Both the position numbers and the translations under genes were made by a program. Positions 1 to 25,012 of a stretch of 64,000 nucleotides of DNA are shown here, one piece after another (within the stretch, counting starts at the first letter, position 1; each line of letters starts with the position of its first letter). The notes beneath the pieces are model-generated. The model was not told the DNA's origin. It was given only the letters and a program-made list of their open reading frames with translations, and searched no databases. The stretch spans positions 1 through 64,000 of the IMG/VR virus record IMGVR_UViG_3300042922_000707; one strand, 5' to 3'. Source of the DNA: a virus.

Positions 1-1135
1 CACCCTCCTCCAAGGTCCAACCATTATATATTGCACTTGCTCCAATACTTTCAGCAAGCGACACAAGTATACTCATCATTGCTAAGTTTCTTGCTGGCGT
101 CCAACATACGGTGCTCTTTATGTTAGTCTTTTCAGACTTTGGTATATCTAAGTTAGGGTCTGTCAATACGCTACTTCCCAATTGCCCAAGCCACTTAATA
201 TCAATGTATTTTACTACCGCACCCAAATCATTGGCTATTGCCTGAACAGCTTCCCACTCACGCTCTGCACTCTTTTGACCCATGTCAAAAAATGCCATTA
301 CAACTTCCTTACCTTCTATCTTCTTCGCAACATAGGCACTGGTGGAACTGTCAATACCACCACTTGCACATACAAGTACTAAATTGTTATTCTTGGGTGG
401 TAAGCTGGAAATTGTCTTTGTGTGCAACTCCTCTTCCACGTGACAGAATTGTTTAAAGTTTATGTAATTGATTGTATACGGGTTGACATTTTCAATTCTA
501 TTTCTGCTAAATATATTCTCTTTGCCAAATATATCTTCAATAAACTCTCTCTCACTTGCAAAATAAAAATCATTTTTGTCTGTACCATACCAAAGCGTTT
601 TAAAGTCTTTGATTAGTACTACCTCATCTGGGTTGCCTATCTTGGCAAAAGCACATGCAAAACCCCCACTTAGAATTGGAAATACCTCATGCTTAAGTAT
701 ACTATAGCAGTCTCTAACCGTGCCGTAGGTTGTATGTCTATATAATAAGTCCAACACCAGCTCTGAGTCTAATTTCATATCCGTAAGTGAGTACTTACTA
801 CATAGCTCTTCGTCATTTGACACAACGCCATTATGAGCAAGGACATAGCCATGCTTTAATACTGGCTGTAGTGAATCCACATCAGTGCTTGCAATCTCCG
901 TCATAGGCTGTGCCCGTGCATTAAGTATTACAAAATCTCCACTGAAGTCCATATTGAAAAATGGCTCACTACCTGTTGGAAGTTCTGTACTTTTGAGCCA
1001 CTTCCCTGTCCTTACACTTACAATACCGTAACCATCCTGACCTCTAAGGCTAGTTTTTTCCATCAGTTGCACTATCTTTTTTACCTGCTCTGTGTGGTTA
1101 CCTTCTCCAAACCTAATACCTGCAATTCCGCACAT
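1..1135 (-). CDS. queC: Gat-QueC fusion (class II glutamine amidotransferase + 7-cyano-7-deazaguanine synthase), C-terminus beyond window edge
   Basis: Hand-translated; not in ORF track. ATG at 1135 with GGAGG RBS, open to position 1. MCGIAG..RGQDGYG..AHNGVVSN..DSE (Ntn-type GATase), then SGGIDS, FDMGQK, SSVLTD, TPARN (QueC motifs). Confidence 0.92.
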   Translation of the reverse strand, partial: MCGIAGIRFGEGNHTEQVKKIVQLMEKTSLRGQDGYGIVSVRTGKWLKSTELPTGSEPFFNMDFSGDFVILNARAQPMTEIASTDVDSLQPVLKHGYVLAHNGVVSNDEELCSKYSLTDMKLDSELVLDLLYRHTTYGTVRDCYSILKHEVFPILSGGFACAFAKIGNPDEVVLIKDFKTLWYGTDKNDFYFASEREFIEDIFGKENIFSRNRIENVNPYTINYINFKQFCHVEEELHTKTISSLPPKNNNLVLVCASGGIDSSTSAYVAKKIEGKEVVMAFFDMGQKSAEREWEAVQAIANDLGAVVKYIDIKWLGQLGSSVLTDPNLDIPKSEKTNIKSTVCWTPARNLAMMSILVSLAESIGASAIYNGWTLEEG

Positions 1136-1166
1136 TAAGTTCATACCTCCTTAATTTATATAGTAC

Positions 1167-7832: not shown

Positions 7833-8915
7833 TTATCTGTTATAAACAGACTTTCTTCTTTCTTTTGTCAATAAATCTGTTGTCTCAATTTTTTGAACAT
7901 CAACTTTCTCGTCAAAAGCAAGCTTGTAAGTTCCTGCAAGTGCTCTCGCTAGAAATATTGCATATCTCTTTTCAGTGCTTTCGAGTGACTCATTCTTAGC
8001 TCTGTCTCCGGCTGTTAATGTACTAATTCTTTCAGCAAGTGGTTTGTACTCTTCTGACTTAACAAAGTCCACAGCAGTAGTTACACTTACATGCCACAAC
8101 ATGTCTTTTCCAAATAACACATTAACCTGACCTCTGGTTGCTCTATTGGCTTCCATTATCTTTGCACTGTAGCCCGACGCCTTAGCTTCCTGAACTAACT
8201 TATATTGGTTAACATCTTGTGGGTCTCTTAGTACCCATTTTGGATATCCATCAACTGGCTTTCTTGGCTCTTTTGGAGTTTTTGGAGCTGGTGTCGCTTT
8301 TCCTATTATTCCAACATCTTCCAATTCCACACCTGGTGTAATTGCTTTCAGTGCCTCTTCTGTTAATGCAATAGGACAATCTGCCTTAAGCATTTTCATG
8401 GCAGTCACTTTACTTACAAGGTAAGTAGCCAATAATAATTCTATTGCCTGGTCCTTACTATTGAATTTCTTAACCTCACCAGTTAAAATATCCATTATGT
8501 GCCCACTAACGACTTTTTTATTGGACTCCATTTTTTCTTCGATCTCGATTTCAATTGCAGTTTTACCTGTTCTAAATGACTGTTTAAATTTTACCGCCGC
8601 TTTTGGTTCCTTTGGTGCTTTTGGTTCCTTTGGTGCTTTTGGTGTCTTTGCGGAAATTTCTTTCTTAGCTTGTGTACCTGTTTCTGTGGCAACAGCCTCA
8701 ATAATTTCTCCGCCCTCATTCATAACCTCATTAACCTGCTCGGAAGTTAATTTCAATTCGGATTCCATAAATGCTCTTCCCATTCTCTCACTGCTAAATT
8801 TTCTGTTGTTTACTTCCATTTTAGCAACTTTGCCATCATCATTCTTATGAAGAATAACATTAACGGGCGTCTCACCAAATACCTTATTAATTTTTACCTG
8901 AGTCATAACTAACAC
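7833..8915 (-). CDS. Lys-rich multidomain hypothetical protein with PK(A/E/T) linkers
   Basis: 360-aa ORF; TPKAPKEPKAPKEPK and APKTPKEPRKP linkers; own promoters and terminator. Confidence 0.75.
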   Translation of the reverse strand: MLVMTQVKINKVFGETPVNVILHKNDDGKVAKMEVNNRKFSSERMGRAFMESELKLTSEQVNEVMNEGGEIIEAVATETGTQAKKEISAKTPKAPKEPKAPKEPKAAVKFKQSFRTGKTAIEIEIEEKMESNKKVVSGHIMDILTGEVKKFNSKDQAIELLLATYLVSKVTAMKMLKADCPIALTEEALKAITPGVELEDVGIIGKATPAPKTPKEPRKPVDGYPKWVLRDPQDVNQYKLVQEAKASGYSAKIMEANRATRGQVNVLFGKDMLWHVSVTTAVDFVKSEEYKPLAERISTLTAGDRAKNESLESTEKRYAIFLARALAGTYKLAFDEKVDVQKIETTDLLTKERRKSVYNR

Positions 8916-8956
8916 CTCTCCTTTATTTTATGTGAACAATATTACAGTAGGATTTT

Positions 8957-9060
8957 ATTATACAGTACAAACATCTAAATGTAAACACTAAATAATAAAA
9001 TCACTGAAATATTTTGTTCCTTTGTAATGCATTATAAAACCGTATTGCCATTATTGTAAA
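8957..9060 (-). promoter_or_regulatory. Tandem promoters for ORF 7833..8915
   Basis: TTTACA-N17-TATAAT (8957-8985) and TTTACA-N18-TATAAT (9031-9060). Confidence 0.7.
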
Positions 9061-9089
9061 ATAAAAATGGCAAAAAGAGCAAATCATGT

Positions 9090-9326
9090 TTAATCCCAAT
9101 GTCCGTGTTTCTTCATAATCTCCGTTACCTCTTCTGCATAGGGCTCATCCATATTTATGACTATGTATCGTTTATCCTGCACATCTGGAATTTTCTTATT
9201 TAATTTATTCATCATTTTGTGCAAGTTAAGTTGGTCTGTTATGGATAGGAACTGCAAAAACTTCCTGTTGATTACTAGGAACTTGTCAAATTTTCCACCT
9301 TGTGCGTTAAGCATACAAACCTCCAA
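9090..9326 (-). CDS. Hypothetical protein
   Basis: In-operon ORF, YIVINMDEPYAEEV motif. Confidence 0.6.
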   Translation of the reverse strand: MEVCMLNAQGGKFDKFLVINRKFLQFLSITDQLNLHKMMNKLNKKIPDVQDKRYIVINMDEPYAEEVTEIMKKHGHWD

Positions 9327-9329
9327 AAT

Positions 9330-9905
9330 TTAATCTATAAATTTACCCATCATTCCCTGTTTGTAGCACAGGAAAAGCCCAGCTGTGTCAAATCTAGCAT
9401 CATGGAATCCTATATCGCCAGCCCCATAAAATTCTCTAGCCATTGCAAGTGCAACCTCGGGTTCAATACCTAAAAACTTCATAAGCTCCTCAAGTTTAGG
9501 CCACTTGTTTCCGAATCTTCCTGGTATCTTACATATTGGTGTAAAATGTTTCATTGTGCAGAAGGTTGACTTAGGCTCAATTTGTAGTTTACATCGCATA
9601 AACTCTGTGTGTAGAAAATTCATATCAAATTGTGAATTGTGTATAACTAAATCGCTGTCTTTAAAATCCACAATCAGTTCGTTTGCTCTGTCCTGAAACC
9701 TAGTGCCTCCCGACAGCTCAGACAGTCTTTCCATAGTGAACCCATGTACATCAGATGCCTGTTTTGGCATTTCATCCACCATGAAAAATTGATTAACTGC
9801 TCCCTTAAATTTTAAGGCACTGTCTGTTATTATGTAAGATAACTGTGCAATCTGTCCGGGTTTAAAACCTGTTGTTTCTGTGTCTAAAAATAGTTTGTTT
9901 GCCAT
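9330..9905 (-). CDS. DEDDh 3'-5' exonuclease (DnaQ/epsilon-like)
   Basis: FLDTETTG, HNSQFD, HDARFD. Confidence 0.9.
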   Translation of the reverse strand: MANKLFLDTETTGFKPGQIAQLSYIITDSALKFKGAVNQFFMVDEMPKQASDVHGFTMERLSELSGGTRFQDRANELIVDFKDSDLVIHNSQFDMNFLHTEFMRCKLQIEPKSTFCTMKHFTPICKIPGRFGNKWPKLEELMKFLGIEPEVALAMAREFYGAGDIGFHDARFDTAGLFLCYKQGMMGKFID

Positions 9906-9920
9906 TCTAAATATCTCCCT

Positions 9921-10463
9921 TTATTTTATAGTGTGGTTGCCATTGCTGAAAACACCTGACAATAGCATTTTTTCTAAATTGTGACTTAACCTAATTTCTC
10001 TATTAGTTCTACTACAGTCACCCAATGTTATTTCAAATAAGTCATCATTTCTTTCCCTTATAAAAATTCTGTAGCCCCTTGTGAACAGGGATGTATGCAA
10101 TAAACTCATTTGAGTCGTGTATATTTCCAGCTCTTCGGATTCTATGGACTTTAATGTTTCATAGTAGCCATGCTGGACGGGTATTGCTAGTTCATCTATA
10201 TCTGACTCATCCATGAAAAATGTTATCATCTTACTTTGCACAATTTCCTTCATTTCCTCACCTCCTACTAATGCCTTAATTTTGTATAACAGCGTTGTCC
10301 TTATCCACTGGTTACATACTTTAGGCTCTGACGGATAGCCGTAATAGTCCACAATTGGCTCATTATTAATGCTTACTACCTCGACATCATTTTCTTGTAG
10401 CCACTTATTTATTTGTTCATCATTTGCACCATCAAAGGTTTTTATTTGGAACACTCTATGCAC
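9921..10463 (-). CDS. Hypothetical protein, probable fusion of two small ORFs
   Basis: Internal in-frame GGAGGTGAGGAAATG. Confidence 0.55.
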   Translation of the reverse strand: MHRVFQIKTFDGANDEQINKWLQENDVEVVSINNEPIVDYYGYPSEPKVCNQWIRTTLLYKIKALVGGEEMKEIVQSKMITFFMDESDIDELAIPVQHGYYETLKSIESEELEIYTTQMSLLHTSLFTRGYRIFIRERNDDLFEITLGDCSRTNREIRLSHNLEKMLLSGVFSNGNHTIK

Positions 10464-10466
10464 CCC

Positions 10467-11348
10467 TTACATTATATACAGTATAAAGCTGTATACGATT
10501 TTGTCATTACATTTCCCGGTCTTGATTTTAAAGTCCAAATCAAAGAGCTTATCTATAATTTGCACCAATGCGTGAGTACTATAATGCTTGGACATTTTCA
10601 TGCAGTTGTTGACAATAAATTTAGGTATCTTTGTTATCTTTACAATCTCATCAGCACCTCTGCCCTGTTCCATCATACTCTTTACAGCCAACACTTTTCT
10701 GTATTGTGTATAGAGCAATGATAGAAGCTTAACATTATTCTCATTCAACTTGTGATAAATATAGATTGCCTTTTCTGCTTCCTTATTACAAATTGCGTCA
10801 ATCATATCAAAAACTTTAAAATTATCCGGTATATGGCAAACTGTCTCAATATGCTCTTCAGTTATTTTATCCTGTGTGTAATTATTAAGCTTGGCAATGT
10901 TGTTCTTTAAATCGGACAAATTATTCTCACTAACTGCCACAAGAAGTTCTGCAGTTGCTTTGGTTATTTTTAAATTACTTTGTGTATACGCTACGAGCTC
11001 CCCCGCTGTAAGTTGCTTAAACTCCACTAATTCTACCCCTATAGGAAGGTTGGAGCACTTACTTGTTATTACTATTAAGTAGTTAACGGTGGGTTTAATG
11101 ACCTTTATAAGCTCCGAAACAAAGGAAGGGTTGTCAACTACTATAATAGTTCTTTTCCTAAACAGCCCACGGTTAAGGATTAGCTTCTGTATGTTGTTTA
11201 CATCATACTCTTCAAACCTTAGCACTTCCGAATCCGTCTTATCCTGCAATACTTTAATGCAGTTCTTCATCATTTCTCTCTCTTCTCCGGCAAAGACAAA
11301 GTAGTTTCCATTACTACCTTTATTCACACTCGCAAGAAATTTATTCAT
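10467..11348 (-). CDS. holA: Clamp loader delta subunit
   Basis: YFVFAGEE, GLF (SLF-equivalent clamp-binding motif), NIAKL, FDMIDAI, LDFKIKTG. Confidence 0.85.
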   Translation of the reverse strand: MNKFLASVNKGSNGNYFVFAGEEREMMKNCIKVLQDKTDSEVLRFEEYDVNNIQKLILNRGLFRKRTIIVVDNPSFVSELIKVIKPTVNYLIVITSKCSNLPIGVELVEFKQLTAGELVAYTQSNLKITKATAELLVAVSENNLSDLKNNIAKLNNYTQDKITEEHIETVCHIPDNFKVFDMIDAICNKEAEKAIYIYHKLNENNVKLLSLLYTQYRKVLAVKSMMEQGRGADEIVKITKIPKFIVNNCMKMSKHYSTHALVQIIDKLFDLDFKIKTGKCNDKIVYSFILYIM

Positions 11349-12202
11349 TAAATCACCCCTCTCAACCTGAGCATCAATGTGTCCACAAACATTGTGAAGT
11401 TAACAGGAACACCCATCTTTCTCTTATAGGAGTCCAGTATTTTAACATTTCTATATGCCTGTTCGGGTGTTATATCGAACTCCTTGTACTTGTCCAAAAG
11501 TGCAATGTCTGTTATAAACTCCTCAGCACCTATTTTTACAAAGTGCAAATCCGTGTATATAACTATCATGGTGTCCAGTAGCAAGCTTAAGTTTTCCTCA
11601 ATGGGCTTCACATGCTCAATAATGTTAAATATGTTTCCAACAGACGTCTTTGGCAAATTGAATATAATTTTAGTGGCAATATTTCTAACATCCACGAACA
11701 GCTTACCCGCTATCCTATCTACAGTCCCAAGAACTCCCTTACAGTAGTTTTGTAGCATTCTATACTTTTTGATGTTAGGATAATTCAATTTTACATACTC
11801 TTCAATCTCGTCGTCTGTATATAGCTTCATTTTAAATAGGTTACACCTACTCTTAATGGTGGTAAGCACCTTACTTGGGTCCTCACACAGTATTAAAAAT
11901 CTTACATGTTCCGGGCATTCCTCCAGTACTTTAAGCAGTGCATTTTGACTCTGGACTGTTAAATTATCCGCATTCCTGATTATGTACTCTTGAGAGCTCA
12001 TATTAACAACCTGCTCTAGTATCTGTCTAATCTGGTCAACCTTTATCTTTTCCACGCCATCCCCAATTACAGTTGAGGATGGGTAGCATTCCAAGGCAAG
12101 GGTTAACTTTCCCATGCCCTTCTTACCCACAACAATGCATGGTTTATCATTATTCAGAACCAGTTGTTTCATTTCCGACTGACCTATCAATTTCTGTCCC
12201 AC
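11348..12202 (-). CDS. holB: Clamp loader delta-prime subunit
   Basis: LIGQ, GKKGMGK, IKVDQIR, QNALLKVLEE, TIKSRC. Confidence 0.88.
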   Translation of the reverse strand: MGQKLIGQSEMKQLVLNNDKPCIVVGKKGMGKLTLALECYPSSTVIGDGVEKIKVDQIRQILEQVVNMSSQEYIIRNADNLTVQSQNALLKVLEECPEHVRFLILCEDPSKVLTTIKSRCNLFKMKLYTDDEIEEYVKLNYPNIKKYRMLQNYCKGVLGTVDRIAGKLFVDVRNIATKIIFNLPKTSVGNIFNIIEHVKPIEENLSLLLDTMIVIYTDLHFVKIGAEEFITDIALLDKYKEFDITPEQAYRNVKILDSYKRKMGVPVNFTMFVDTLMLRLRGVI

Positions 12203-12341
12203 CTTTCTTATTAAAGTAATACATAGGAGCGGAACTGTGTCCCCTCGTGTAACTATATGGTAACTTCACACCAGGTGGTAGACTAAACATCCAACCCAGC
12301 ATACTTACCAATTTCTTAAATATGGATTTCATTCCTCGCAT
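12150..12341 (-). CDS. Small hypothetical protein
   Basis: GGAGG RBS, in operon. Confidence 0.45.
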   Translation of the reverse strand: MRGMKSIFKKLVSMLGWMFSLPPGVKLPYSYTRGHSSAPMYYFNKKGGTEIDRSVGNETTGSE

Positions 12342-12352
12342 CCCTCCACAAA

Positions 12353-12568
12353 TTACTCTTTTTTACTCCACTGTATGATACCCCACACGTTTAATCCAGT
12401 ATAGAATATATACATAGCCAATTGAGCATAATCTCTTCTAATAATGCTATAGAATACCCAAATTAGCCCCGCTATCATCCAAATCCACATGCCCCATAAT
12501 CTTTTGTATATGACGCCCACATTTCCAATTATACTACCAATTGTGGCAACCCAAGACATAAACAACAT
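12353..12568 (-). CDS. PnuC-like small membrane protein (3 TM)
   Basis: Three hydrophobic segments, W..W..N/GIIQW pattern typical of phage PnuC-like proteins. Confidence 0.6.
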   Translation of the reverse strand: MLFMSWVATIGSIIGNVGVIYKRLWGMWIWMIAGLIWVFYSIIRRDYAQLAMYIFYTGLNVWGIIQWSKKE

Positions 12569-13593
12569 TAATTTCTCCCCAGTCCTAATTTAAGTAACTC
12601 ATTTTGTATTAAAAGATATTCATTGTCACTGTATCGTAATTCTGTGTCTAGCTCCTGCAAAGCCTCCAGAAATTTGAAGTCTACAATAGTTGAGTGCCTT
12701 TTAATGTCCACCAAGTTCTCGGGACTAGAATTGATATAGTCAAGCGACTCCTCACCCAGTTTACTATAAATCAAACAATCGTTGCAGTAGTTAAACAAGT
12801 CCTTTATAAATTGTCTCATATCCACACCACTGTAATAAATTGACTTCAACTGCTTAAGTAACTCTGGTGGATTGCTTATATTATTCATAACACCCAAAAT
12901 GGTATCCATGCCAACACTACCCAATATTTTAAGTATATCAGAATATGTTATACCTTCCTTATAGTTCCTAACCTGGTCAAATATACTAATAGCATCCCTC
13001 ATACTACCCTTGCCCATTTTAGCAATGTACATAAGAGCAGTATCTTCCATTTCGATACCCTCTTGTCCGGCAATGTACTTTACACGCCCAAATAGGTCCT
13101 TAACGTCAAAACGTTGTAAATCAAAGCGTTGGCATCTGGAGAGTATAGTCGCTGGAATCTTCTGTGGGTCTGTCGTACATAACATGAATATTATATGTGC
13201 GGGTGGCTCTTCCAAAGTCTTCAACAGGGCGTTAAATGCTCCTGTACTCAACATATGAACCTCGTCTATTATGTAAATCTTAAACTTACCCTTGCTTGGT
13301 CTGTGATTAACTTCCTGCCTTATATTTCTAATGTTCTCGACGCCGTTATTAGATGCTCCATCTATCTCAATTATGTTCATGTCAAGTTCCTGGCGTGTAA
13401 GAACTCCGTCCTCATTTACCATTCTAGCTAGGATTCTAGCCGTAGTAGTTTTACCTATTCCACGTGTTCCTGTGAATAAATAGGAGTGACTTATTTCATC
13501 ATTCTTAATTTGATTTTGCAGTATAATTTTAACATGGTCCTGTCCACAAACGTCCTCAAATACTTGAGGTCTATATTTCTGATATAAACTCAT
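12568..13593 (-). CDS. dnaX: Clamp loader gamma/tau ATPase subunit (short, gamma-like)
   Basis: LYQKYRPQ, GTRGIGKTT, IDGASNNGVE, IIDEVHML, NALLKTLEEPP, ILSRC, GSMRDA. Start moved to ATG 13593. Confidence 0.96.
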   Translation of the reverse strand: MSLYQKYRPQVFEDVCGQDHVKIILQNQIKNDEISHSYLFTGTRGIGKTTTARILARMVNEDGVLTRQELDMNIIEIDGASNNGVENIRNIRQEVNHRPSKGKFKIYIIDEVHMLSTGAFNALLKTLEEPPAHIIFMLCTTDPQKIPATILSRCQRFDLQRFDVKDLFGRVKYIAGQEGIEMEDTALMYIAKMGKGSMRDAISIFDQVRNYKEGITYSDILKILGSVGMDTILGVMNNISNPPELLKQLKSIYYSGVDMRQFIKDLFNYCNDCLIYSKLGEESLDYINSSPENLVDIKRHSTIVDFKFLEALQELDTELRYSDNEYLLIQNELLKLGLGRN

Positions 13594-13855
13594 TAGCCTC
13601 TTCCTCCTGCTGTGCAAATTTCTTAAATGGGCCGTCAAATGAAAAATCCGATAATTTGTGGTTTAGTAATTTTTCTCTTGCCTCATATTTATCCTTCAAA
13701 GTGCTTACTAAAATTTTAACAGGTAGACGTTTATCCAGTGATGCACCATTTTCCCAATTACTTCCCCTCAATGACGCTAAGCCTTTTTCAATCTCTTCAA
13801 TGTCCCTATCCAGTTGCCCAAACTCTTCAAGTATCTGTTTTACAGTTATATCCAT
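13571..13855 (-). CDS. Hypothetical coiled-coil protein
   Basis: GGAGG RBS, 94 aa. Confidence 0.6.
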   Translation of the reverse strand: MDITVKQILEEFGQLDRDIEEIEKGLASLRGSNWENGASLDKRLPVKILVSTLKDKYEAREKLLNHKLSDFSFDGPFKKFAQQEEEANEFISEI

Positions 13856-13907
13856 AACTTACCTCCATTTTTATTTTATATTGTGCAGTACACCCCCAAA
13901 ATAAGTA

Positions 13908-13959
13908 CCTTAATTCTACCATTATAGCCCTTTTTATGGGGGTGTAATACATTTATACT
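13908..13959 (+). repeat. Dispersed intergenic element copy 1
   Basis: CCTTAATTCTACCATT..GTAATACATTTATACT; 40/52 ungapped identity to copy at 50979. Confidence 0.75.
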
Positions 13960-13968
13960 GTAATATTT

Positions 13969-16389
13969 TTATGCAAACACGCTCTCTTCATACTCATCCT
14001 GCACTTCCGACTCTTCTTCACCCAAATCATCATCCAATTCCTCAAGAATTAGTTTTTCATTGTCCTCTCCAACTTCTTCATGCCCTTCCCAATGATATAC
14101 TGGTCCATACCATTGCTCACTTACTTCAGCATCTACTTTTATAACTATACCGCCTCTTTCAATAAGTCTACTACATGCGTCAATCATGCACTGCTTAATA
14201 ATTGGTATAGCCTCTACCAAGTTAGCTTTTGGTATGGAAGTAATAACCTCGTCATGCACTGTAGATATAAGAGTAACATCCAATTCTCTCAGTCGCCTAT
14301 TGGCATATATGAATGCCATGGCTCTTTTAGTTATCTCAGCACTGGAGCCCTGCATTATAGAGTTTACACACTGTCTCTCAGCATCTGAGCGTATCCATGC
14401 ACGGCTGTCCTGCAAATCCGGAAGTCTTCTTTTTGTATGGTACAGCATTTCCACGTATCCTTTTTCATATGCGGAGTCCAGCACGCTTTGAGTGAACTCT
14501 TTAATTGCAGGAAAGGTGTCAAAGTATCGCTCAATCTCTCGTTTAGCCTCTGTCTCAGTACAATCCAGTCCCTCTGCAAGTCCAACCTCAGTCATACCAT
14601 AGTTAAGTCCAAGGACTATTGCCTTAACCTTACCTCTCCATGGGCTTTTATACCCTGTGTCGTCATTGTCCAAGTACTCCTGTTCTGGGTGCCCGGGAAA
14701 GAATAATACTGCCTGTTGTACATACACATCCTTGGCATTCCTATATGCGTCAAGCATCGTCTCATCTCCGGACAGTACAGCTAGAATACGTGGCTCTATT
14801 TGTGAGTAGTCAGTGGAGCATAGGACATTTCCTTCCTCTGCAATAAAGCAACGTCGTATCTTCTTACCAAAGTCAACCTTAACTTCCTGCCCCTCTATTA
14901 ATAATTTCTTTGACTTAGAAGGGATATTTTGTAGATTAGGGTCGGAACTTGAAAACCGGTTGGTAACTGCCTTATAGGGGTTAAAGGAAGTATGAACTCT
15001 TCCGTCAACTGGACTAATAGCCTCCAACAGACCATCACAGTAAGTTCCTATCATTTTCTTAACTGTTCTATATGCTAAAATGCTTTTGCATACTGAAAAT
15101 TGTTTAGCGAGCCTTTGCATAACCTTCTCGTTTGTAGCCTTGCCGTCCTTCTTAGTAGTTGGCCAACCCCATATTGAGAAAAATAAGTCACCTAACTGTG
15201 GGGGGCTGTTTATGTTCAACCCAGGTATAAAAGATGTCCTTAAAGTGTTCCTGTCAAATACCTTAGCCTTACCATTCTTTGTGCTAGGCGGAACATTAAC
15301 AACCTGCACATGGGGATTATCGTCCAGGAATTTATCCATCAATTCCTGCAATTGGGTTTTTATTGTCTTCTCAATGGCAACCTTGTACCCCTCAAATTCT
15401 TCCTTGTTTGCATTTACTCTATCCACGTCAAGTAACATACCTCTACGCTCTGCCGCAATTACTGATGGCAAAACCTGTAACTGTATTACATAGTAGGACT
15501 CAGCAAGACCGGGTCTCTTCTTTATGTGGCTTTCCGCAAACTCCATCCATTCCCAATGAAGTATGGCATCTTTGCATGCATAATAGCCAACCATCCATAT
15601 TGGAAAGTATGCACATGGCGTCTTTTCAAATATCTCATCAAATTTGTCCAATGGATTTTGTTGGTACTGTTTGAGCCACTTATTACACAAGGGCTTCAAT
15701 TTATTTACTGGCTCATTTTCATTTAATACCCTTGATGCTAAATATCCCTCAAACGCAATATCTGGCATTTCAATGCCCAGATTTATCCAAACTACATGGC
15801 TGTCAAACTTACCATTGAATGTTACAACACCACAGTATTCATCGGACATGTCTATGTCGTCAATACTGTTTAGAGTTCGCATACTGTACGCAAGAGATTC
15901 TTCTCTTTTCTTTCTCATAACAGGTGCCATATTTTCTTTTATAAATTCCACAGGTAATTGCTTACCCTCCACAGGCTCTATACAGTCAAGGTGATGTATC
16001 GGTATATACCAGGCATTACCATCACATGGCGTATAAAAAGATATGCCTACTATGTTGTCGCCATGCCATATCTTTAGACCCATAGTCTCTGTATCGTATG
16101 AAAATCTTCTGCACTCCTCAATAGAGCGAAGTAGTCTATCCAACTTCTCGTCCGTGTCCACTATTATGTAATTGCTGGGCCACTCTGAAAGTACGTTTGG
16201 GTGCTTTTTCTTAAACTCATCCACAAGTATGGAAACCGTTTGTTTTATCTTACCAATACTTTTTCCAGCTCCGGACTTCTTAACAGTCCTTTTCTCAGTC
16301 ATGGAGGATATAATTTTATTTATTTCTTTAGGATTTATTACATCCCTCTTTAGATTATTATCAACACCAAAAAGTAAATTACGTTTCAA
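13969..16389 (-). CDS. polA: Family A DNA polymerase with 3'-5' exonuclease domain (no 5' nuclease)
   Basis: YDTET, FNGKFD, YACKDA exo motifs; SSSDPNLQNIP, DYSQIEPR, KAIVLGLNYG, TVHDE. Confidence 0.96.
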   Translation of the reverse strand: MKRNLLFGVDNNLKRDVINPKEINKIISSMTEKRTVKKSGAGKSIGKIKQTVSILVDEFKKKHPNVLSEWPSNYIIVDTDEKLDRLLRSIEECRRFSYDTETMGLKIWHGDNIVGISFYTPCDGNAWYIPIHHLDCIEPVEGKQLPVEFIKENMAPVMRKKREESLAYSMRTLNSIDDIDMSDEYCGVVTFNGKFDSHVVWINLGIEMPDIAFEGYLASRVLNENEPVNKLKPLCNKWLKQYQQNPLDKFDEIFEKTPCAYFPIWMVGYYACKDAILHWEWMEFAESHIKKRPGLAESYYVIQLQVLPSVIAAERRGMLLDVDRVNANKEEFEGYKVAIEKTIKTQLQELMDKFLDDNPHVQVVNVPPSTKNGKAKVFDRNTLRTSFIPGLNINSPPQLGDLFFSIWGWPTTKKDGKATNEKVMQRLAKQFSVCKSILAYRTVKKMIGTYCDGLLEAISPVDGRVHTSFNPYKAVTNRFSSSDPNLQNIPSKSKKLLIEGQEVKVDFGKKIRRCFIAEEGNVLCSTDYSQIEPRILAVLSGDETMLDAYRNAKDVYVQQAVLFFPGHPEQEYLDNDDTGYKSPWRGKVKAIVLGLNYGMTEVGLAEGLDCTETEAKREIERYFDTFPAIKEFTQSVLDSAYEKGYVEMLYHTKRRLPDLQDSRAWIRSDAERQCVNSIMQGSSAEITKRAMAFIYANRRLRELDVTLISTVHDEVITSIPKANLVEAIPIIKQCMIDACSRLIERGGIVIKVDAEVSEQWYGPVYHWEGHEEVGEDNEKLILEELDDDLGEEESEVQDEYEESVFA

Positions 16390-16588: not shown

Positions 16589-17257
16589 TTAAAATGGTAT
16601 GTCTTCATCATCGTCAATTGGCTTAAACCTATTAGTCGCACCCTGTCTTTTTGTTGGAGTTGAGCTTGCCGCTCCTGCCCCACCCTTTAGCAATGCAACC
16701 ATTTCATCATAGTCCTTCTTTAGTACAAAGTCATAGATGTCTGGTCTCTCTGGTAACTTCTCAATTGGTATTAATAATTCACTTTCATCATATGGGTCGA
16801 TGTCATAGGAAGTTCCAGTATCACCGGATTTACCGTTTCTAAGTATTTCATACACATGCTTTCTTAAGTCTTTTTTCTTGCTTATTAAGTTAAGGATACG
16901 ATTTATTACATCCCTACCTCTATCCCATAACTCTATCTTTGGTTCCTTTGGTACTTTTCCCTTTTCGTCTGGTCTCCAGCTTAACAGATACAGGAATAAT
17001 CTTAGTGATGTCTTGCTACCCTGCTCACACATTGCACAAGGTTTCTCATACATCTTTAGGCACTCCACATATCTCTTCTTTCCGTCCACCTCTATTTGGT
17101 GCGTAAGTAATACGTTTAGGTCATCCGCATCCTTGTGCAGGAATTGAACATCTGCTCTGTCCCCATCCTCTTTCAACCCAAAAAATCCGACATTTGCTCC
17201 AGTGGCAAAAGTGTCAATTGCGCCTTTAATTGCATCAATACCTTTAAAACCTGCCAT
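16589..17257 (-). CDS. Phage single-stranded DNA-binding protein (gp32-like)
   Basis: FF.LK.DGD, C-x7-C-x2-C, RNGKSGDTGTSY, acidic C-terminus DDDEDIPF. Confidence 0.8.
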   Translation of the reverse strand: MAGFKGIDAIKGAIDTFATGANVGFFGLKEDGDRADVQFLHKDADDLNVLLTHQIEVDGKKRYVECLKMYEKPCAMCEQGSKTSLRLFLYLLSWRPDEKGKVPKEPKIELWDRGRDVINRILNLISKKKDLRKHVYEILRNGKSGDTGTSYDIDPYDESELLIPIEKLPERPDIYDFVLKKDYDEMVALLKGGAGAASSTPTKRQGATNRFKPIDDDEDIPF

Positions 17258-20618: not shown

Positions 20619-21992
20619 CTAAAATATGTACTCACTTGTCTGTATTACTTTGTTTTCTTTCTTATCCTTGGAACCTCGCTTTGCCTGTGGTTGCTCGTCT
20701 TCCTCCTCTTCCGGTCTGTCGAAAAGATTTATAAAGCCCCTATCTATGTCCCACACAAATTCCTGCTTTCCACCAATGCCGTATCTATTCTTCGGAACAT
20801 TTATCATAACTATGTTTCCTTTTCTTGCAAATGTAACAACACGGGTGGCATCCTCACCTGCACTGTTACTCTCCATGAACTGGTGAGTCTCTGGTGCATC
20901 TATCTGGTCACTGCCATTCTTTTTGTTCTTGTCCCTACCCTTTGCCCAGTCTCTTCCTATCTGACCCGTAACTAATATAGGTATTCTCTTTTTGCTGGAC
21001 AGTCTGTAAAAGTTTCTAGTAAGGAATATATACCTCTCTCTTATTGTTCCAAACTTCTTAACTGTACCTATTAAGGAAAGTTGGTCAATGCCAACAATAT
21101 CTGGCTTAATAATATCAATTAAATTCTCAATGTCCTCAAAAGTACATTGAGCGTTGTCCTCATTTGTGTAAACCATAAAATCTGGATTGTCTTCATCCTT
21201 AAGCTCTTCAAGATACTTAATATAGTCGTCCTTTGATAAATCAATTGGTACTATTCTACCCCCAACACTTTTATCAACTTTTCCGAGCTCTGTATTACCT
21301 TTCATAAGCCCAAGGTTACTAAAATTTCCATTCCATGTATCAAAACGGAAACCCACAAGGACTTTGCCCATCTCTCTACTTATTAAAAGTACTTTCTTTT
21401 TTGACCTACCCCATGCCGCCCACAAAAGGAATAAAAGCAGCCATGACTTACCTTCACCAAGGTAACCACCAAGCATTACAAAGTCTTCTTCTTGCCAACC
21501 GTTAGTCAGGTCATCCAACCATTCCAAACCAGTGGGTATCCCTGTCAGACCCTTCATTTCCATTCTTTTCAAATAGTCATCTTTTCTAACATCTGTGTCT
21601 TTCGCTAAATTGTGACCCACATGCCTAAAGTCAAGCGTTTCTGCAATTTCCCTTAGTTGTGCCCTTAGGAAGTCAACGGCGTCAAAACTATCCTCTCTTA
21701 GCTTTTCGTCACCTTCTTTAAGTATTGGAACTATTTTATTATAGACATACTGCTCTCGTAGTGAATTTACTAAATATTCCTCCGACTCACCTACCTTAAA
21801 CACCTCAAAATCAGGGTATTTTGCAAGGAACGTGTGTATATCAGGAACCTGTCCTACTTTTCTCCAATGCGTATGTATAAATTCAAATTCTTCTTTACAA
21901 AATTCAAAATAAGTTTCATTTATTTTGTTTCTCTGTATTATACCAATATCTTTCTGCTCCAAAATGTGATTAATTATTTGATACTCTACCAA
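20619..21992 (-). CDS. dnaB: Replicative DnaB-like helicase
   Basis: GIPTG..LD..TNG, GYLGEGKS, SREM, IDQLSL, KNRYG. Start moved to TTG 21992 after GGGAGG. Confidence 0.92.
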   Translation of the reverse strand: MVEYQIINHILEQKDIGIIQRNKINETYFEFCKEEFEFIHTHWRKVGQVPDIHTFLAKYPDFEVFKVGESEEYLVNSLREQYVYNKIVPILKEGDEKLREDSFDAVDFLRAQLREIAETLDFRHVGHNLAKDTDVRKDDYLKRMEMKGLTGIPTGLEWLDDLTNGWQEEDFVMLGGYLGEGKSWLLLFLLWAAWGRSKKKVLLISREMGKVLVGFRFDTWNGNFSNLGLMKGNTELGKVDKSVGGRIVPIDLSKDDYIKYLEELKDEDNPDFMVYTNEDNAQCTFEDIENLIDIIKPDIVGIDQLSLIGTVKKFGTIRERYIFLTRNFYRLSSKKRIPILVTGQIGRDWAKGRDKNKKNGSDQIDAPETHQFMESNSAGEDATRVVTFARKGNIVMINVPKNRYGIGGKQEFVWDIDRGFINLFDRPEEEEDEQPQAKRGSKDKKENKVIQTSEYIF

Positions 21993-22014
21993 GTCAATGA
22001 CCTCCCTACAATAT

Positions 22015-22044
22015 AGTATAAACGAACTCAACTACTTTTGTATT
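22015..22044 (-). promoter_or_regulatory. Degenerate 18-bp-spacer promoter upstream of helicase
   Basis: AATACA-N18-TATACT. Confidence 0.5.
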
Positions 22045-22162: not shown

Positions 22163-22882
22163 CTAAAAGCTCGAACGTAAGTCGGAGGACCTAACTTCAT
22201 AGCACTCACACCCATTTACTATTCTGCTGTGCAACCTACTACCCAACACACCCTGCAATTTCTGTGGCGGTAGGTTACCAGTTAATATAAGTCCCCTGTC
22301 ATTTGACAATGCAGAGTCTACAATATTAAAAAGTAAATCTAAGGTAGTTTTAGTCTGACCGTCAAACCCAATGTCATCAATCATTACTAAGTGGCTCTTA
22401 TAAATGTTGTTATTTATTAATTCCAAAAAGTCGGACTTGTTTGAAAACCTAGCTTTATAAGTCTCTGCATATTGGCTGAATGGAACAAACAGCACAGGAG
22501 TAAATTCATTCTCAACGTACTCCATTATCCTATACTCATTAATCATCCTTCTAAGGAAGTCGTTTAGCAGTACCAAGCCAAGTGAAGTTTTGCCCGAACC
22601 TACGTTTCCATATAGGTATATGCCCTTTGTATAGTTAGCGTCGGATGTCAATCTCTTTATGTGCTCTACACCAAGGTCCACATCCTCCCTCACAATTTTG
22701 GATAAATCCTCTGGAACCCAATCCCTATACTTCTTAGGGACATTGTTTATTCCATAAATGTACTCTGTTTTATAGTAAACAGCACAGCCATCGTTGCACT
22801 GCCCTCTTCTGCACGTTCTGGAAACAGTGCATTTATTCCTATCAAATACAAAGTCCTGTTCATCAAAACTCGTAAACTTCAT
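22163..22882 (-). CDS. dnaC: DnaC/IstB-like helicase loader ATPase
   Basis: YLYGNVGSGKT, VMIDDIG, ILTGN, RLHSRI; between initiator and helicase. Confidence 0.85.
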   Translation of the reverse strand: MKFTSFDEQDFVFDRNKCTVSRTCRRGQCNDGCAVYYKTEYIYGINNVPKKYRDWVPEDLSKIVREDVDLGVEHIKRLTSDANYTKGIYLYGNVGSGKTSLGLVLLNDFLRRMINEYRIMEYVENEFTPVLFVPFSQYAETYKARFSNKSDFLELINNNIYKSHLVMIDDIGFDGQTKTTLDLLFNIVDSALSNDRGLILTGNLPPQKLQGVLGSRLHSRIVNGCECYEVRSSDLRSSF

Positions 22883-24495
22883 TATACCAAGCCTCCTATC
22901 CTTATATCTGTCCCGATACCATACACTTTCTCATGTATAGCCTTTTGTATTTCATCGTATTCCTCATTTGCAGGTATCATAACATTTTCTACATAGTCCT
23001 CTAAATACATAAAGTCCTGTGAAGATATTTTATCCTTAACCTCATCTGTAAGATATCCATTAACAAACCACCTACTTATGTACCTACCAAAACTTGGTAT
23101 ATCGTCATCCTCAAAGTAGTCATTTGGAACCCATTTGATACGCCTCATATAATTTCTATCTTCTTTTCCATCAATAAGCCCGTACTTCTTTAGCCACTTG
23201 GGTTTCTCATGTTTCCACAACTCCATCAACTCAGGGAGCTTATCTCTATAGTCACTATCTTCTTTGTATACAACACTGCCTGACCCTGCCACAGTAGGAA
23301 CTCCTGAATACTCGGACAAGTTTATTATCTGTTTTAAAATACTACCCTTATTATTTAATAGTAAATGAGCATAGATTGGATTTGGATAGCTTTCTAAGTC
23401 TAGTCCCTTTATCTTACCTTCACGGTAAGTCTCTAAAAATACATCAACCACCTTTGCCAGCTGTTCCATTGTTAATCCATAGGAACCATTCTGCTCATAC
23501 AGTAGTTTAAATGTTCTGAAACTCCTTTCGCTTACCTTACATGCGGTGCCATAAATTTCCTTTAGTCGATGCTCATAGTATAAACATAACTCATCCACAT
23601 TGAAATTCTTAAATTCCTTTTTACTTAATTTATCTAAAAACTCTTGAGAAATTTTATCCTTCTTTTCTTGATGCTCTTTTTTCTTTTTCTGCTCTTTTAA
23701 ACTTTTGGCTTCCTTATAGGACAAAGGTTTATCAAAGTCCTCTTTTTTGATGTCTGTATTTAGAAGGTGAGTAAAAAATGATTTAGACTGAAAATGCGTA
23801 GCATTATTATTTTTTATATTTGTATTTTTTATATTTGTATGTTTCTGTGTGCGAGTTTCCGCATACGGTGGTGTGCGAGTTTCCGCACACGGGGGTGTGC
23901 AATTTCCCGTAACTTCCTTATTTCCTAAGTACTCATCCAGCTCTTCCTTATCCTCAATACCACGTAAGCTATCAAAATACTCAATAAATTCATTTCTTTC
24001 TTTTAGCATTTCTTCATAATCTATCTCACTGTCTATGCCATTGTACCGCATAATTTCTTCTTTAGATAAACATTTCCATAAATCAAGGAAGTATAAAGTA
24101 GCCTCATTTATATGTAGGTCAAAGAATTTATTTATGTATTCTATGCTGTCATAGTAATCAATAATGCTCCTGTTTGAAATTCTGTAGATGTACCCCTTTT
24201 CCTCAATTCCTAATATCTTATCAAAAACCTGTCTTCTAGATATACCTAAATCACTTGCTATAGTTTCAACCCTTGGAAAAACAAAACCCTTGTAGCCAAC
24301 TCCAGAATTTTTAAAATTGTATGATATCAAATAAGCTATAACAAGCCTTTCATCTAATTTAAGTGCCTGGTCGGTCAATAGACTATTGGGTATAACTGTA
24401 ACTCCATCACATCTTCCCATAAAATTATGGTTTATCCAATACCCCTTGACACTTGCTTTAAGCGACAATTCTGCGGTATTTTTGAAGTAGTTCAT
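22882..24495 (-). CDS. Replication initiator-like protein with N-terminal winged HTH
   Basis: FPRVETIASDLGISRRQV..LEEKGYI; central repeat/AT-rich linker; start moved to ATG 24495 (AAGGAGG). Confidence 0.75.
   Translation of the reverse strand: MNYFKNTAELSLKASVKGYWINHNFMGRCDGVTVIPNSLLTDQALKLDERLVIAYLISYNFKNSGVGYKGFVFPRVETIASDLGISRRQVFDKILGIEEKGYIYRISNRSIIDYYDSIEYINKFFDLHINEATLYFLDLWKCLSKEEIMRYNGIDSEIDYEEMLKERNEFIEYFDSLRGIEDKEELDEYLGNKEVTGNCTPPCAETRTPPYAETRTQKHTNIKNTNIKNNNATHFQSKSFFTHLLNTDIKKEDFDKPLSYKEAKSLKEQKKKKEHQEKKDKISQEFLDKLSKKEFKNFNVDELCLYYEHRLKEIYGTACKVSERSFRTFKLLYEQNGSYGLTMEQLAKVVDVFLETYREGKIKGLDLESYPNPIYAHLLLNNKGSILKQIINLSEYSGVPTVAGSGSVVYKEDSDYRDKLPELMELWKHEKPKWLKKYGLIDGKEDRNYMRRIKWVPNDYFEDDDIPSFGRYISRWFVNGYLTDEVKDKISSQDFMYLEDYVENVMIPANEEYDEIQKAIHEKVYGIGTDIRIGGLV
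23800..23910. repeat. Iteron-like 24-bp repeats plus AT-rich tract (candidate origin)
   Basis: GTGTGCGAGTTTCCGCA(T/C)ACGG twice plus a degenerate third copy, next to TTTTTTATATTTGTAT repeats. Confidence 0.7.
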
Positions 24496-25012
24496 ATGCC
24501 TCCTCCTTATCCTTTGCGTCAATTATTATACTAAGTTGTGTATTGGATAATTCAGTTATTAGTACCGGGTAATCAAAATATGCGTGGGATAATGTTATGC
24601 CCTGTAACTCCTTAACCATACTAAAGAAGTCCCTCCAGTTGCCCATATAATTATCACACACCTTTAGCCAATCAAGTTCATAGAAGTCAAAGTAATGAGC
24701 AATTCCCATCAAGTAGCAGTACAACTTCAATTGCTCTGAACTAAGTTTCATTGCCAGTTCTATGGGAAGGTGTAACAAATTGCCCTTAGTGAACTCTTCA
24801 CATTCTAAAAATGACTTGTAGTTTTCTGGCTCTGGTAACTCTCTTTTGCCAAAATTTAAGTGCATTGGACTACAGAAATCCACTATATGTATGTCTATTT
24901 TTATAAACTTTTTTGTCCTGTCATATATCATCTCTTGTTCCAATTTGGATATTTTTCTAAGTATGTGGTGAGACAATTCCGTACCATATAACTCAATGCC
25001 ATCTAACTTCAT
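24458..25012 (-). CDS. Hypothetical protein, possible degenerate winged-helix
   Basis: LPIELAMKLSSEQLKLYCYL resembles initiator N-terminus. Confidence 0.55.
   Translation of the reverse strand: MKLDGIELYGTELSHHILRKISKLEQEMIYDRTKKFIKIDIHIVDFCSPMHLNFGKRELPEPENYKSFLECEEFTKGNLLHLPIELAMKLSSEQLKLYCYLMGIAHYFDFYELDWLKVCDNYMGNWRDFFSMVKELQGITLSHAYFDYPVLITELSNTQLSIIIDAKDKEEAYELLQKYRRIVA

Follow-up and report, generated by a model that had tools for sequence, protein, structure and literature searches.

A proofreading family A DNA polymerase and a bacterial-type clamp loader in viral record IMGVR_UViG_3300042922_000707: a divergent member of the Dp-1/phiCTP1/Flasso replisome type with a candidate clamp-binding peptide

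Phages Dp-1, phiCTP1 and Flasso are annotated with a family A DNA polymerase (PolA), the clamp loader subunits DnaX, delta' and delta, and a sliding clamp (DnaN) of their own. Joint action of a PolA and a polIII-beta clamp was proposed for Ma-LMM01 and RSL1 (Kazlauskas & Venclovas 2011; PMC3201878), and stimulation of E. coli Pol I by beta is cited in the same paper. In a global survey, clamps were present in all viruses that encode a clamp loader (PMC4889955). In T4 (gp43-gp45-gp44/62) the principle is similar, a terminal peptide of the polymerase being tethered to a ring placed by an AAA+ loader, but the polymerase belongs to family B, the peptide is C-terminal and the ring is a PCNA-like trimer. 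The T7 replicase gp5 is a family A enzyme which uses host thioredoxin as a clip instead of a ring. The subject of the present work is a polymerase and clamp loader block found at positions 9330-16389 of the IMG/VR virus record IMGVR_UViG_3300042922_000707, whose first 64 kb (positions 1 to 64,000 of 76,232 bp) constitute the window analysed. The replication module is a new and divergent example of a phage replisome that is already known. Its PolA is probably tethered to a beta-type clamp put on DNA by the phage loader, the clamp most likely being encoded in a segment that was not assembled and otherwise being that of the host.

Megablast returned no close phage. Among 50,697 phage records the top PolA matches were phiCTP1, FA88, MS1, Flasso and Dp-1 (29-32% identity), which are also among the best full-length DnaX matches; apart from them, hardly any record has a homologue of delta. 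The original prediction regarded the pairing of a PolA with a bacterial loader as an unusual hybrid. This was not borne out, as the combination is annotated in these five phages and the gene set is ordinary for the Dp-1/phiCTP1/Flasso type, of which the module represents a distant, Bacillota-style phage member. Dp-1 and MS1 (NC_015274, KY629621; 29% identity for PolA and 41-42% for DnaX) have a proofreading PolA with Leu at the position of E. coli Phe762 and a Leu-Phe start, a gamma-like DnaX of 341 aa, delta' and delta. Dp-1 also shares the gene order DnaB-DnaG-sigma-SSB-PolA (SSB, single-stranded DNA-binding protein), the Que (7-deazaguanine) genes and the lack of DnaE. Common gene order with this phage is also seen in phiCTP1 and Flasso. 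It differs by encoding DnaN, a Cas4-like nuclease, RecU, UvsX and TGT/DpdA, none of which was found in the record, and by having loader genes far from polA, while here they lie directly downstream. Conversely, the DnaQ-like exonuclease, an ATP-dependent ligase and an acidic PolA tail are found here and not in Dp-1. Flasso carries DnaC-like, DnaB and DnaG genes upstream of PolA, with unnamed open reading frames (ORFs) in between, and Que genes. PolA, DnaN and DnaX-delta'-delta are annotated in phiCTP1/FA88 (PolA identity 31-32%) and in Flasso (29%), whose dnaN lies 2-9 kb downstream of polA, unlike in this record. In Ma-LMM01 and RSL1, whose genomes exceed 150 kb, a gamma homologue is the only loader subunit detected, whereas delta and delta' are encoded here too (PMC3201878). 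A search for relatives based on delta yielded only the sister contig described below, three homologues on short contigs and bacterial holA genes of metagenome-assembled genomes of Bacilli.

The polA, dnaX, delta' and delta genes, a 180-aa ORF and the DnaQ-like exonuclease gene are co-oriented on the minus strand, which carries nearly all genes of the window; the single block that had been described is thus real, with strong Pfam or PHROG scores for all its replication genes. PolA (806 aa; 13969..16389, minus strand) matches PF00476 (E=1.6e-93), has a PF01612 3'-5' exonuclease domain and aligns to the Klenow fragment with E=2.4e-64. Polymerase motifs A, B and C are present and the proofreading motifs Exo I, II and III (DTE, NGKFD, YYACKD) are intact. 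No 5' nuclease domain was detected with Pfam or in the Klenow alignment. Motif B (KAIVLGLNYG; 14596..14625, minus strand) aligns to Klenow KAINFGLIYG, which confirms the earlier assignment of Leu to the position of E. coli Phe762; this Leu is invariant in both of our PolA alignments (A3 and A4). According to Suzuki 2000, as reported in PMC6302109, replacement of Phe by Leu at this position makes Taq PolA slower and more accurate. The folded part of the protein is flanked by a flexible N-terminal leader of ~70 aa and by an acidic C-terminal tail of 35-40 aa. An AlphaFold2 model built from a 25-sequence alignment reached a predicted template modelling score of 0.80, with predicted local distance difference test (pLDDT) values below 50 at residues 1-23, 29-41 and 766-806, the first two segments being predicted as disordered ahead of the folded exonuclease domain. 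The acidic tail (13969-14091, minus strand) ends with EESVFA and is not found in Dp-1, phiCTP1 or Flasso.

The feature of PolA most pertinent to clamp use is the peptide K-R-N-L-L-F-G (residues 2-8; 16366..16386, minus strand), a candidate beta-clamp-binding sequence recognized by alignment with the PolA starts of relatives. KRNLLF occupies residues 2-7 provided that the TTG at 16389 is the initiation codon. Three observations favour this start: an in-frame TAG located two codons before it, AAGGA 9-13 nucleotides upstream and the synonymous nature of all four differences (4/4) from the sister contig in codons 1-29. The aligned starts are M-KRNLLFG here, MAQKGLFG in Dp-1, MFQNSLFK in Flasso and MALFNFNR in phiCTP1, and Phe at position 7 is kept in at least 90% of 25 aligned PolAs. 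IMG/VR PolAs start with peptides of the MALF, MPLF or QLSLF type, typical examples being MALFNVPKRAGR, MPLFEIPKR and MSGLFNLPPR. One begins with MEQLSLFG, a textbook case of the clamp-binding consensus QL(S/D)LF (PMC9690074). CS32 and 268TH002, phages that have no clamp genes, encode related PolAs in which the N-terminal Leu-Phe peptide is not present. In the model the N-terminus is disordered, as a tethering peptide should be. The original prediction had singled out KRNLLF as a weak clamp-binding motif. It can now be described as the local form of a peptide conserved in relatives, while its role as a ligand of the beta-clamp cleft is a candidate one, suggested by sequence likeness, by the disordered terminus and by co-occurrence with DnaN.

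The three loader subunits are encoded downstream of polA. DnaX (12568..13638, minus strand; PF13177 with E=1e-35, PF22608, PF12169) is gamma-like and aligned to residues 6-254 of E. coli gamma with E=1e-59. It probably starts with the ATG at position 13593, which gives a protein of 341 aa (356 aa otherwise). All ATPase motifs are kept: GTRGIGKTT, IDEVH, the sensor 1 TTDP, the SRC arginine finger and the sensor 2 GSMRDA. The four-cysteine zinc module is not present, and the protein stops after domain III without the tau domains IV-V, as in Dp-1, Flasso and phiCTP1; the tau mode of coupling to DnaB and to Pol III alpha is therefore not open to this loader. The HolB-like delta' (11348..12202, minus strand; PF13177 with E=1.9e-20, phrog_5846) is a non-catalytic AAA+ protein with a degenerate P-loop (GKKGMGKLT), no DExx motif and a retained SRC motif. 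The HolA-like delta (10467..11348, minus strand; PF21694 with E=2.2e-25, phrog_20214), the clamp-opening subunit, matches B. subtilis delta (3ZH9_B, E=5e-19) and E. coli delta (1JQJ_C, E=0.008). Its domain I did not align to solved deltas; a G-[LM]-F sequence at residues 61-63, where the clamp wedge is expected, is kept in four homologues. The set resembles the E. coli gamma complex in the DnaX match to gamma, in the ATPase and SRC motifs, in the non-catalytic delta' with its SRC and in the homology of delta domains II-III. It differs in accompanying a family A polymerase and in that the tau domains, chi/psi, the zinc module and a clamp gene are not found in the record.

A survey of polA and loader gene co-occurrence in phages, suggested alongside the original prediction, was carried out on 80 IMG/VR PolA loci with 10-kb flanks retrieved with alignment A3. 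They form 65 PolA clusters at 80% identity, 45 of which were evaluable, and were scored for DnaN, DnaX, delta' and delta by means of local profiles. A sequence [LMF]F within the first eight residues of PolA was found in 17 clusters with DnaN and in one without, and no strict N-terminal motif in 7 and 20 clusters, respectively (Fisher p=7.7e-6, without correction for common descent). Among the seven DnaN-positive clusters without the strict motif are the variants MALSFARP, MALIDIPK and MSRIGDIF, as well as MGLLNIKAP and MIKRKSLV, which are both ambiguous. Leu at the 762 position accompanies DnaN in 20 clusters and its absence in two; Phe was found in none of the DnaN-positive and in 10 of the DnaN-negative clusters. 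Loader genes occur in 11 clusters, all of them with DnaN in the same locus. Leu762-type PolA, the N-terminal Leu-Phe peptide and phage DnaN thus go together in the sampled loci. The dnaN gene lies 80-4904 bp downstream of polA.

Searches for a clamp or a family C polymerase, which the original prediction had found missing from the window, were extended to the whole 76,232-bp record. Pfam models gave no match for DnaE/PolC, for the three domains of DnaN or for PCNA. Pfam DnaN models are a weak test, Dp-1 and phiCTP1 DnaN themselves scoring just 17-18 bits, and custom DnaN profiles were used for this reason. Dp-1 and phiCTP1 DnaN used as queries did not match the record either, and hhalign of its ORFs against DnaN gave a probability of at most 2% for every ORF. 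The earlier statement thus holds as far as nothing of the kind was found, but it does not establish that the phage has no clamp, since the record breaks off within a gene, at a junction of the assembly graph. The genes adjoining DnaN closely in Dp-1 are not found either: local profiles for DpdA/TGT, Cas4-like nuclease, RecU and UvsX gave best E values of 0.17 or weaker, and PF01702 had no match. FolE, QueD, QueE and QueC genes are nevertheless present. The Que pathway requires a transglycosylase and makes little sense without one.

The cut is in the Gat-QueC gene (2..1144, minus strand), whose ORF is 3'-open at base 2. It codes for 381 aa here, compared with 503 aa in a full-length homologue, so that ~120 residues are missing. 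Treating the record as a circle was rejected: joining the ends adds 18 unrelated residues followed by a stop codon and does not restore queC. A sister contig from the same metagenome (IMGVR_UViG_3300042922_000600; 75,238 bp), which is ~90% identical (82-93% in the individual pieces that align), has the same two end positions. The two sequences are identical over exactly 127 bp at each end (1-127 and 76106-76232 of the record), with the first mismatch at base 128. Such shared ends are what a junction in a de Bruijn assembly with k=127 leaves behind: a segment common to two strains assembled together was written out on its own, and both records are without it. The missing segment is probably longer than 185 bp, because internal runs identical between the two contigs and up to this length were assembled through. 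The terminal 50-mer matched only the sister contig in IMG/VR and no metagenome contig. No fragment with the C-terminal part of QueC was found in the protein collection, and an exact look-up of partial proteins was empty. CheckV rated the record 100% and its sister 98% complete. At the other end, the ORFs of the region adjoining the break (73.8-76.2 kb of the genome) are short and unannotated.

These data can be assembled in a mechanism in which DnaX, delta and delta' would form a gamma3-delta-delta' complex that opens a ring of the beta (DnaN) type and places it on sites primed by the phage DnaG/DnaB. The Leu-Phe peptide of PolA, carried by its flexible leader of ~70 residues, would bind the hydrophobic cleft of the ring. 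With a genome of at least 76 kb to copy, tethering would provide processivity for an enzyme expected to be slow from the mutagenesis of Taq PolA. The same ring may be shared by the ATP-dependent ligase (65514-66875 of the genome, minus strand), which ends with NDVLF. As for its source, a phage dnaN in the missing segment, beside the rest of queC and DpdA, is the likelier candidate: Dp-1 and Flasso have the order Que genes, TGT, two small ORFs, DnaN and Cas4. Host DnaN is a somewhat unlikely source, and a clamp within the record that escaped recognition an extremely improbable one. The proposal of a loader working for a clamp that PolA uses fits the relatives, judging by their phage DnaN, their x-Leu-Phe start and PolA as the only polymerase found in the five genomes searched for DnaE. 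The further suggestion that this arrangement helps to replicate deazaguanine DNA is not supported, its sole basis being the co-occurrence of Que genes in some relatives.

Several observations weigh against the tethering reading. A profile of 27 phage DnaN sequences run with --max gave a best score of 3.3 bits in the record, even though it did detect (31 bits) a very divergent DnaN in the IMG/VR record G002 that escapes the Pfam model of the DnaN N-terminal domain. DnaN lies within 5 kb downstream of polA in 22/22 DnaN-positive clusters of that pass of the survey, while here loader genes fill the space 3' of polA, with no DnaN and a different gene order. RNLLF lacks both the leading Gln and the V/I-P-x-R that follows in most relatives, and the correlation between motif and DnaN may largely reflect the shared ancestry of one clade. 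The missing segment was not recovered, making the clamp source a guess, and no binding, loading or processivity experiment for any member was found in the searched literature. The fruitless searches with Pfam, the profile and hhalign, and a gene order after polA unlike that of all relatives, would also suit a phage without any clamp gene whose gamma3-delta-delta' complex loads host DnaN on phage DNA for the phage PolA; the CheckV ratings favour this too, as they imply that the missing piece may be small. We consider it rather unlikely: the record demonstrably breaks off within queC, at the k=127 junction, DpdA, Cas4, RecU and UvsX are missing together with DnaN, and DnaN accompanied the loader genes in 11/11 surveyed clusters, in line with the clamps found in all loader viruses (PMC4889955).

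The loader and its clamp might also serve purposes other than replication by PolA, which would then work unaided. One is to act as a mobile platform linking late transcription with replication, as in T4 and reportedly in Mu; late transcription is a documented use of phage clamps (PMC12867686). In this phage as in Dp-1 and phiCTP1, the SSB and polA genes have a sigma-like gene next to them, whose product ends with ADNF in this phage. Ligation or repair is another, given the NDVLF terminus of the ligase. Such an exclusive role is improbable since the conserved Leu-Phe peptide sits on PolA itself and co-varies with DnaN, and a transcription role and a role in PolA processivity are not mutually exclusive. 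Even less probable is that the loader attracts the Pol III core of the host to the replication forks of the phage, with PolA limited to gap filling and primer removal. Bacterial loaders of this type do work with family C polymerases, and phage DnaE genes exist, as illustrated by a fusion protein in the contig L093 described below, so that one could lie in the missing segment. The DnaX found here is, however, gamma-like and devoid of the alpha- and DnaB-binding tau domains IV-V, no DnaE was found in the five relatives searched (Dp-1, phiCTP1, Flasso and two IMG/VR genomes rated 94-95% complete), and PolA has proofreading activity motifs and no detected 5' nuclease domain. Tethering of PolA to a ring placed by the phage loader is the reading that we retain as probable. 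A single polymerase was found in the truncated 76.2-kb record, namely this proofreading PolA, which belongs to the Leu762 subfamily of family A.

Leu762 has been read as a sign of slow, temperate-type replication (PMC6302109, PMC9069017); the word "clamp" is absent from both papers. If the Leu762 PolAs are clamp-tethered, this reading needs revision for the subfamily, and in vitro assays without a clamp would understate these enzymes. The 762 variant is abundant in viromes, and PolAs of the subfamily that carry it would then be replicases that depend on a clamp, and would not indicate a temperate lifestyle. If the clamp gene were truly absent, with the phage loader capturing host DnaN for docking of PolA through its N-terminal peptide, this would be the first virus known with a clamp loader but no clamp. 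We hold this to be unlikely, and such a feature cannot be claimed from this record. The case carries a warning on method: a record rated 100% complete is cut at a k-mer junction where relatives keep the seemingly missing gene.

The remaining genes of the block and its surroundings are the following. The DnaQ-like DEDDh 3'-5' exonuclease (191 aa; 9330..9905, minus strand; PF00929 with E=7.8e-9, phrog_192 with E=1.5e-24) has the motifs DTETTG, HNSQFD and HDARFD. Besides the genes listed in the original prediction the block includes four ORFs. The 180-aa ORF (9921..10463, minus strand) has no Pfam, PHROG or Atlas match and an AlphaFold2 pLDDT of 33. The 94-aa ORF between polA and dnaX (13571..13855, minus strand), without Pfam or PHROG match, is preceded by a promoter-like site (13948-13921). 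The 71-aa hydrophobic, membrane ORF between dnaX and delta' (12353..12568, minus strand) matches PF04973 below the cut-off (E=1.5e-4) and weakly resembles the C-terminal end of PnuC/nicotinamide mononucleotide transporters. The fourth, a doubtful ORF of 63 aa, also comes between dnaX and delta'. Downstream of the exonuclease gene are found a 360-aa orphan, QueD, QueE, FolE, a short-chain dehydrogenase/reductase, a radical-SAM enzyme, ThyX, a dUTPase-like protein, a thymidylate kinase-like protein and the Gat-QueC gene. The orphan (7833-8915, minus strand) has Pro/Lys-rich linkers of the PKxPKEPK type and a conserved C-terminal part of ~140 aa common to a few proteins of 210-260 aa. It was tried as a cryptic clamp and rejected: it has few homologues and no PDB sequence match, and its Atlas model (pLDDT 0.53) has no clamp-like neighbour.

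Upstream of polA, the segment 16589..24522 (minus strand) encodes, in order of transcription, an initiator (22882-24522), a DnaC-like loader, DnaB (20619-22031), DUF5651, DnaG primase, the sigma-like protein and SSB (16589-17257), all on the minus strand. SSB was assigned by phrog_14578 and has no Pfam OB match; its C-terminus DDDEDIPF is the tip with which bacterial SSBs recruit their partners. Its gene is followed by sites resembling a terminator and a promoter.

Two of the contigs used for comparison deserve a description. L093 (FWPU01005907.1) has just Gat-QueC and a radical-SAM gene in common with the phage studied here. It encodes a full-length Gat-QueC, a second QueC-like ORF and, at 7877-10972 (plus strand), a protein of 1031 aa in which domains of uracil-DNA glycosylase, PHP and Pol III alpha (DnaE) are fused. 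In G002 (148,654 bp) PolA is divided between two ORFs ~1 kb apart, possibly through an intron, an intein or a homing-endonuclease insertion, and is followed by the divergent DnaN, then by DnaX, delta and delta' (94638-106127, minus strand). In the record itself, 3 of 101 ORFs, coding for PolA, DnaB (ending with SEYIF) and the ATP-dependent ligase, were counted as ending with a hydrophobic residue and Phe, and these ends are possible docking tails.

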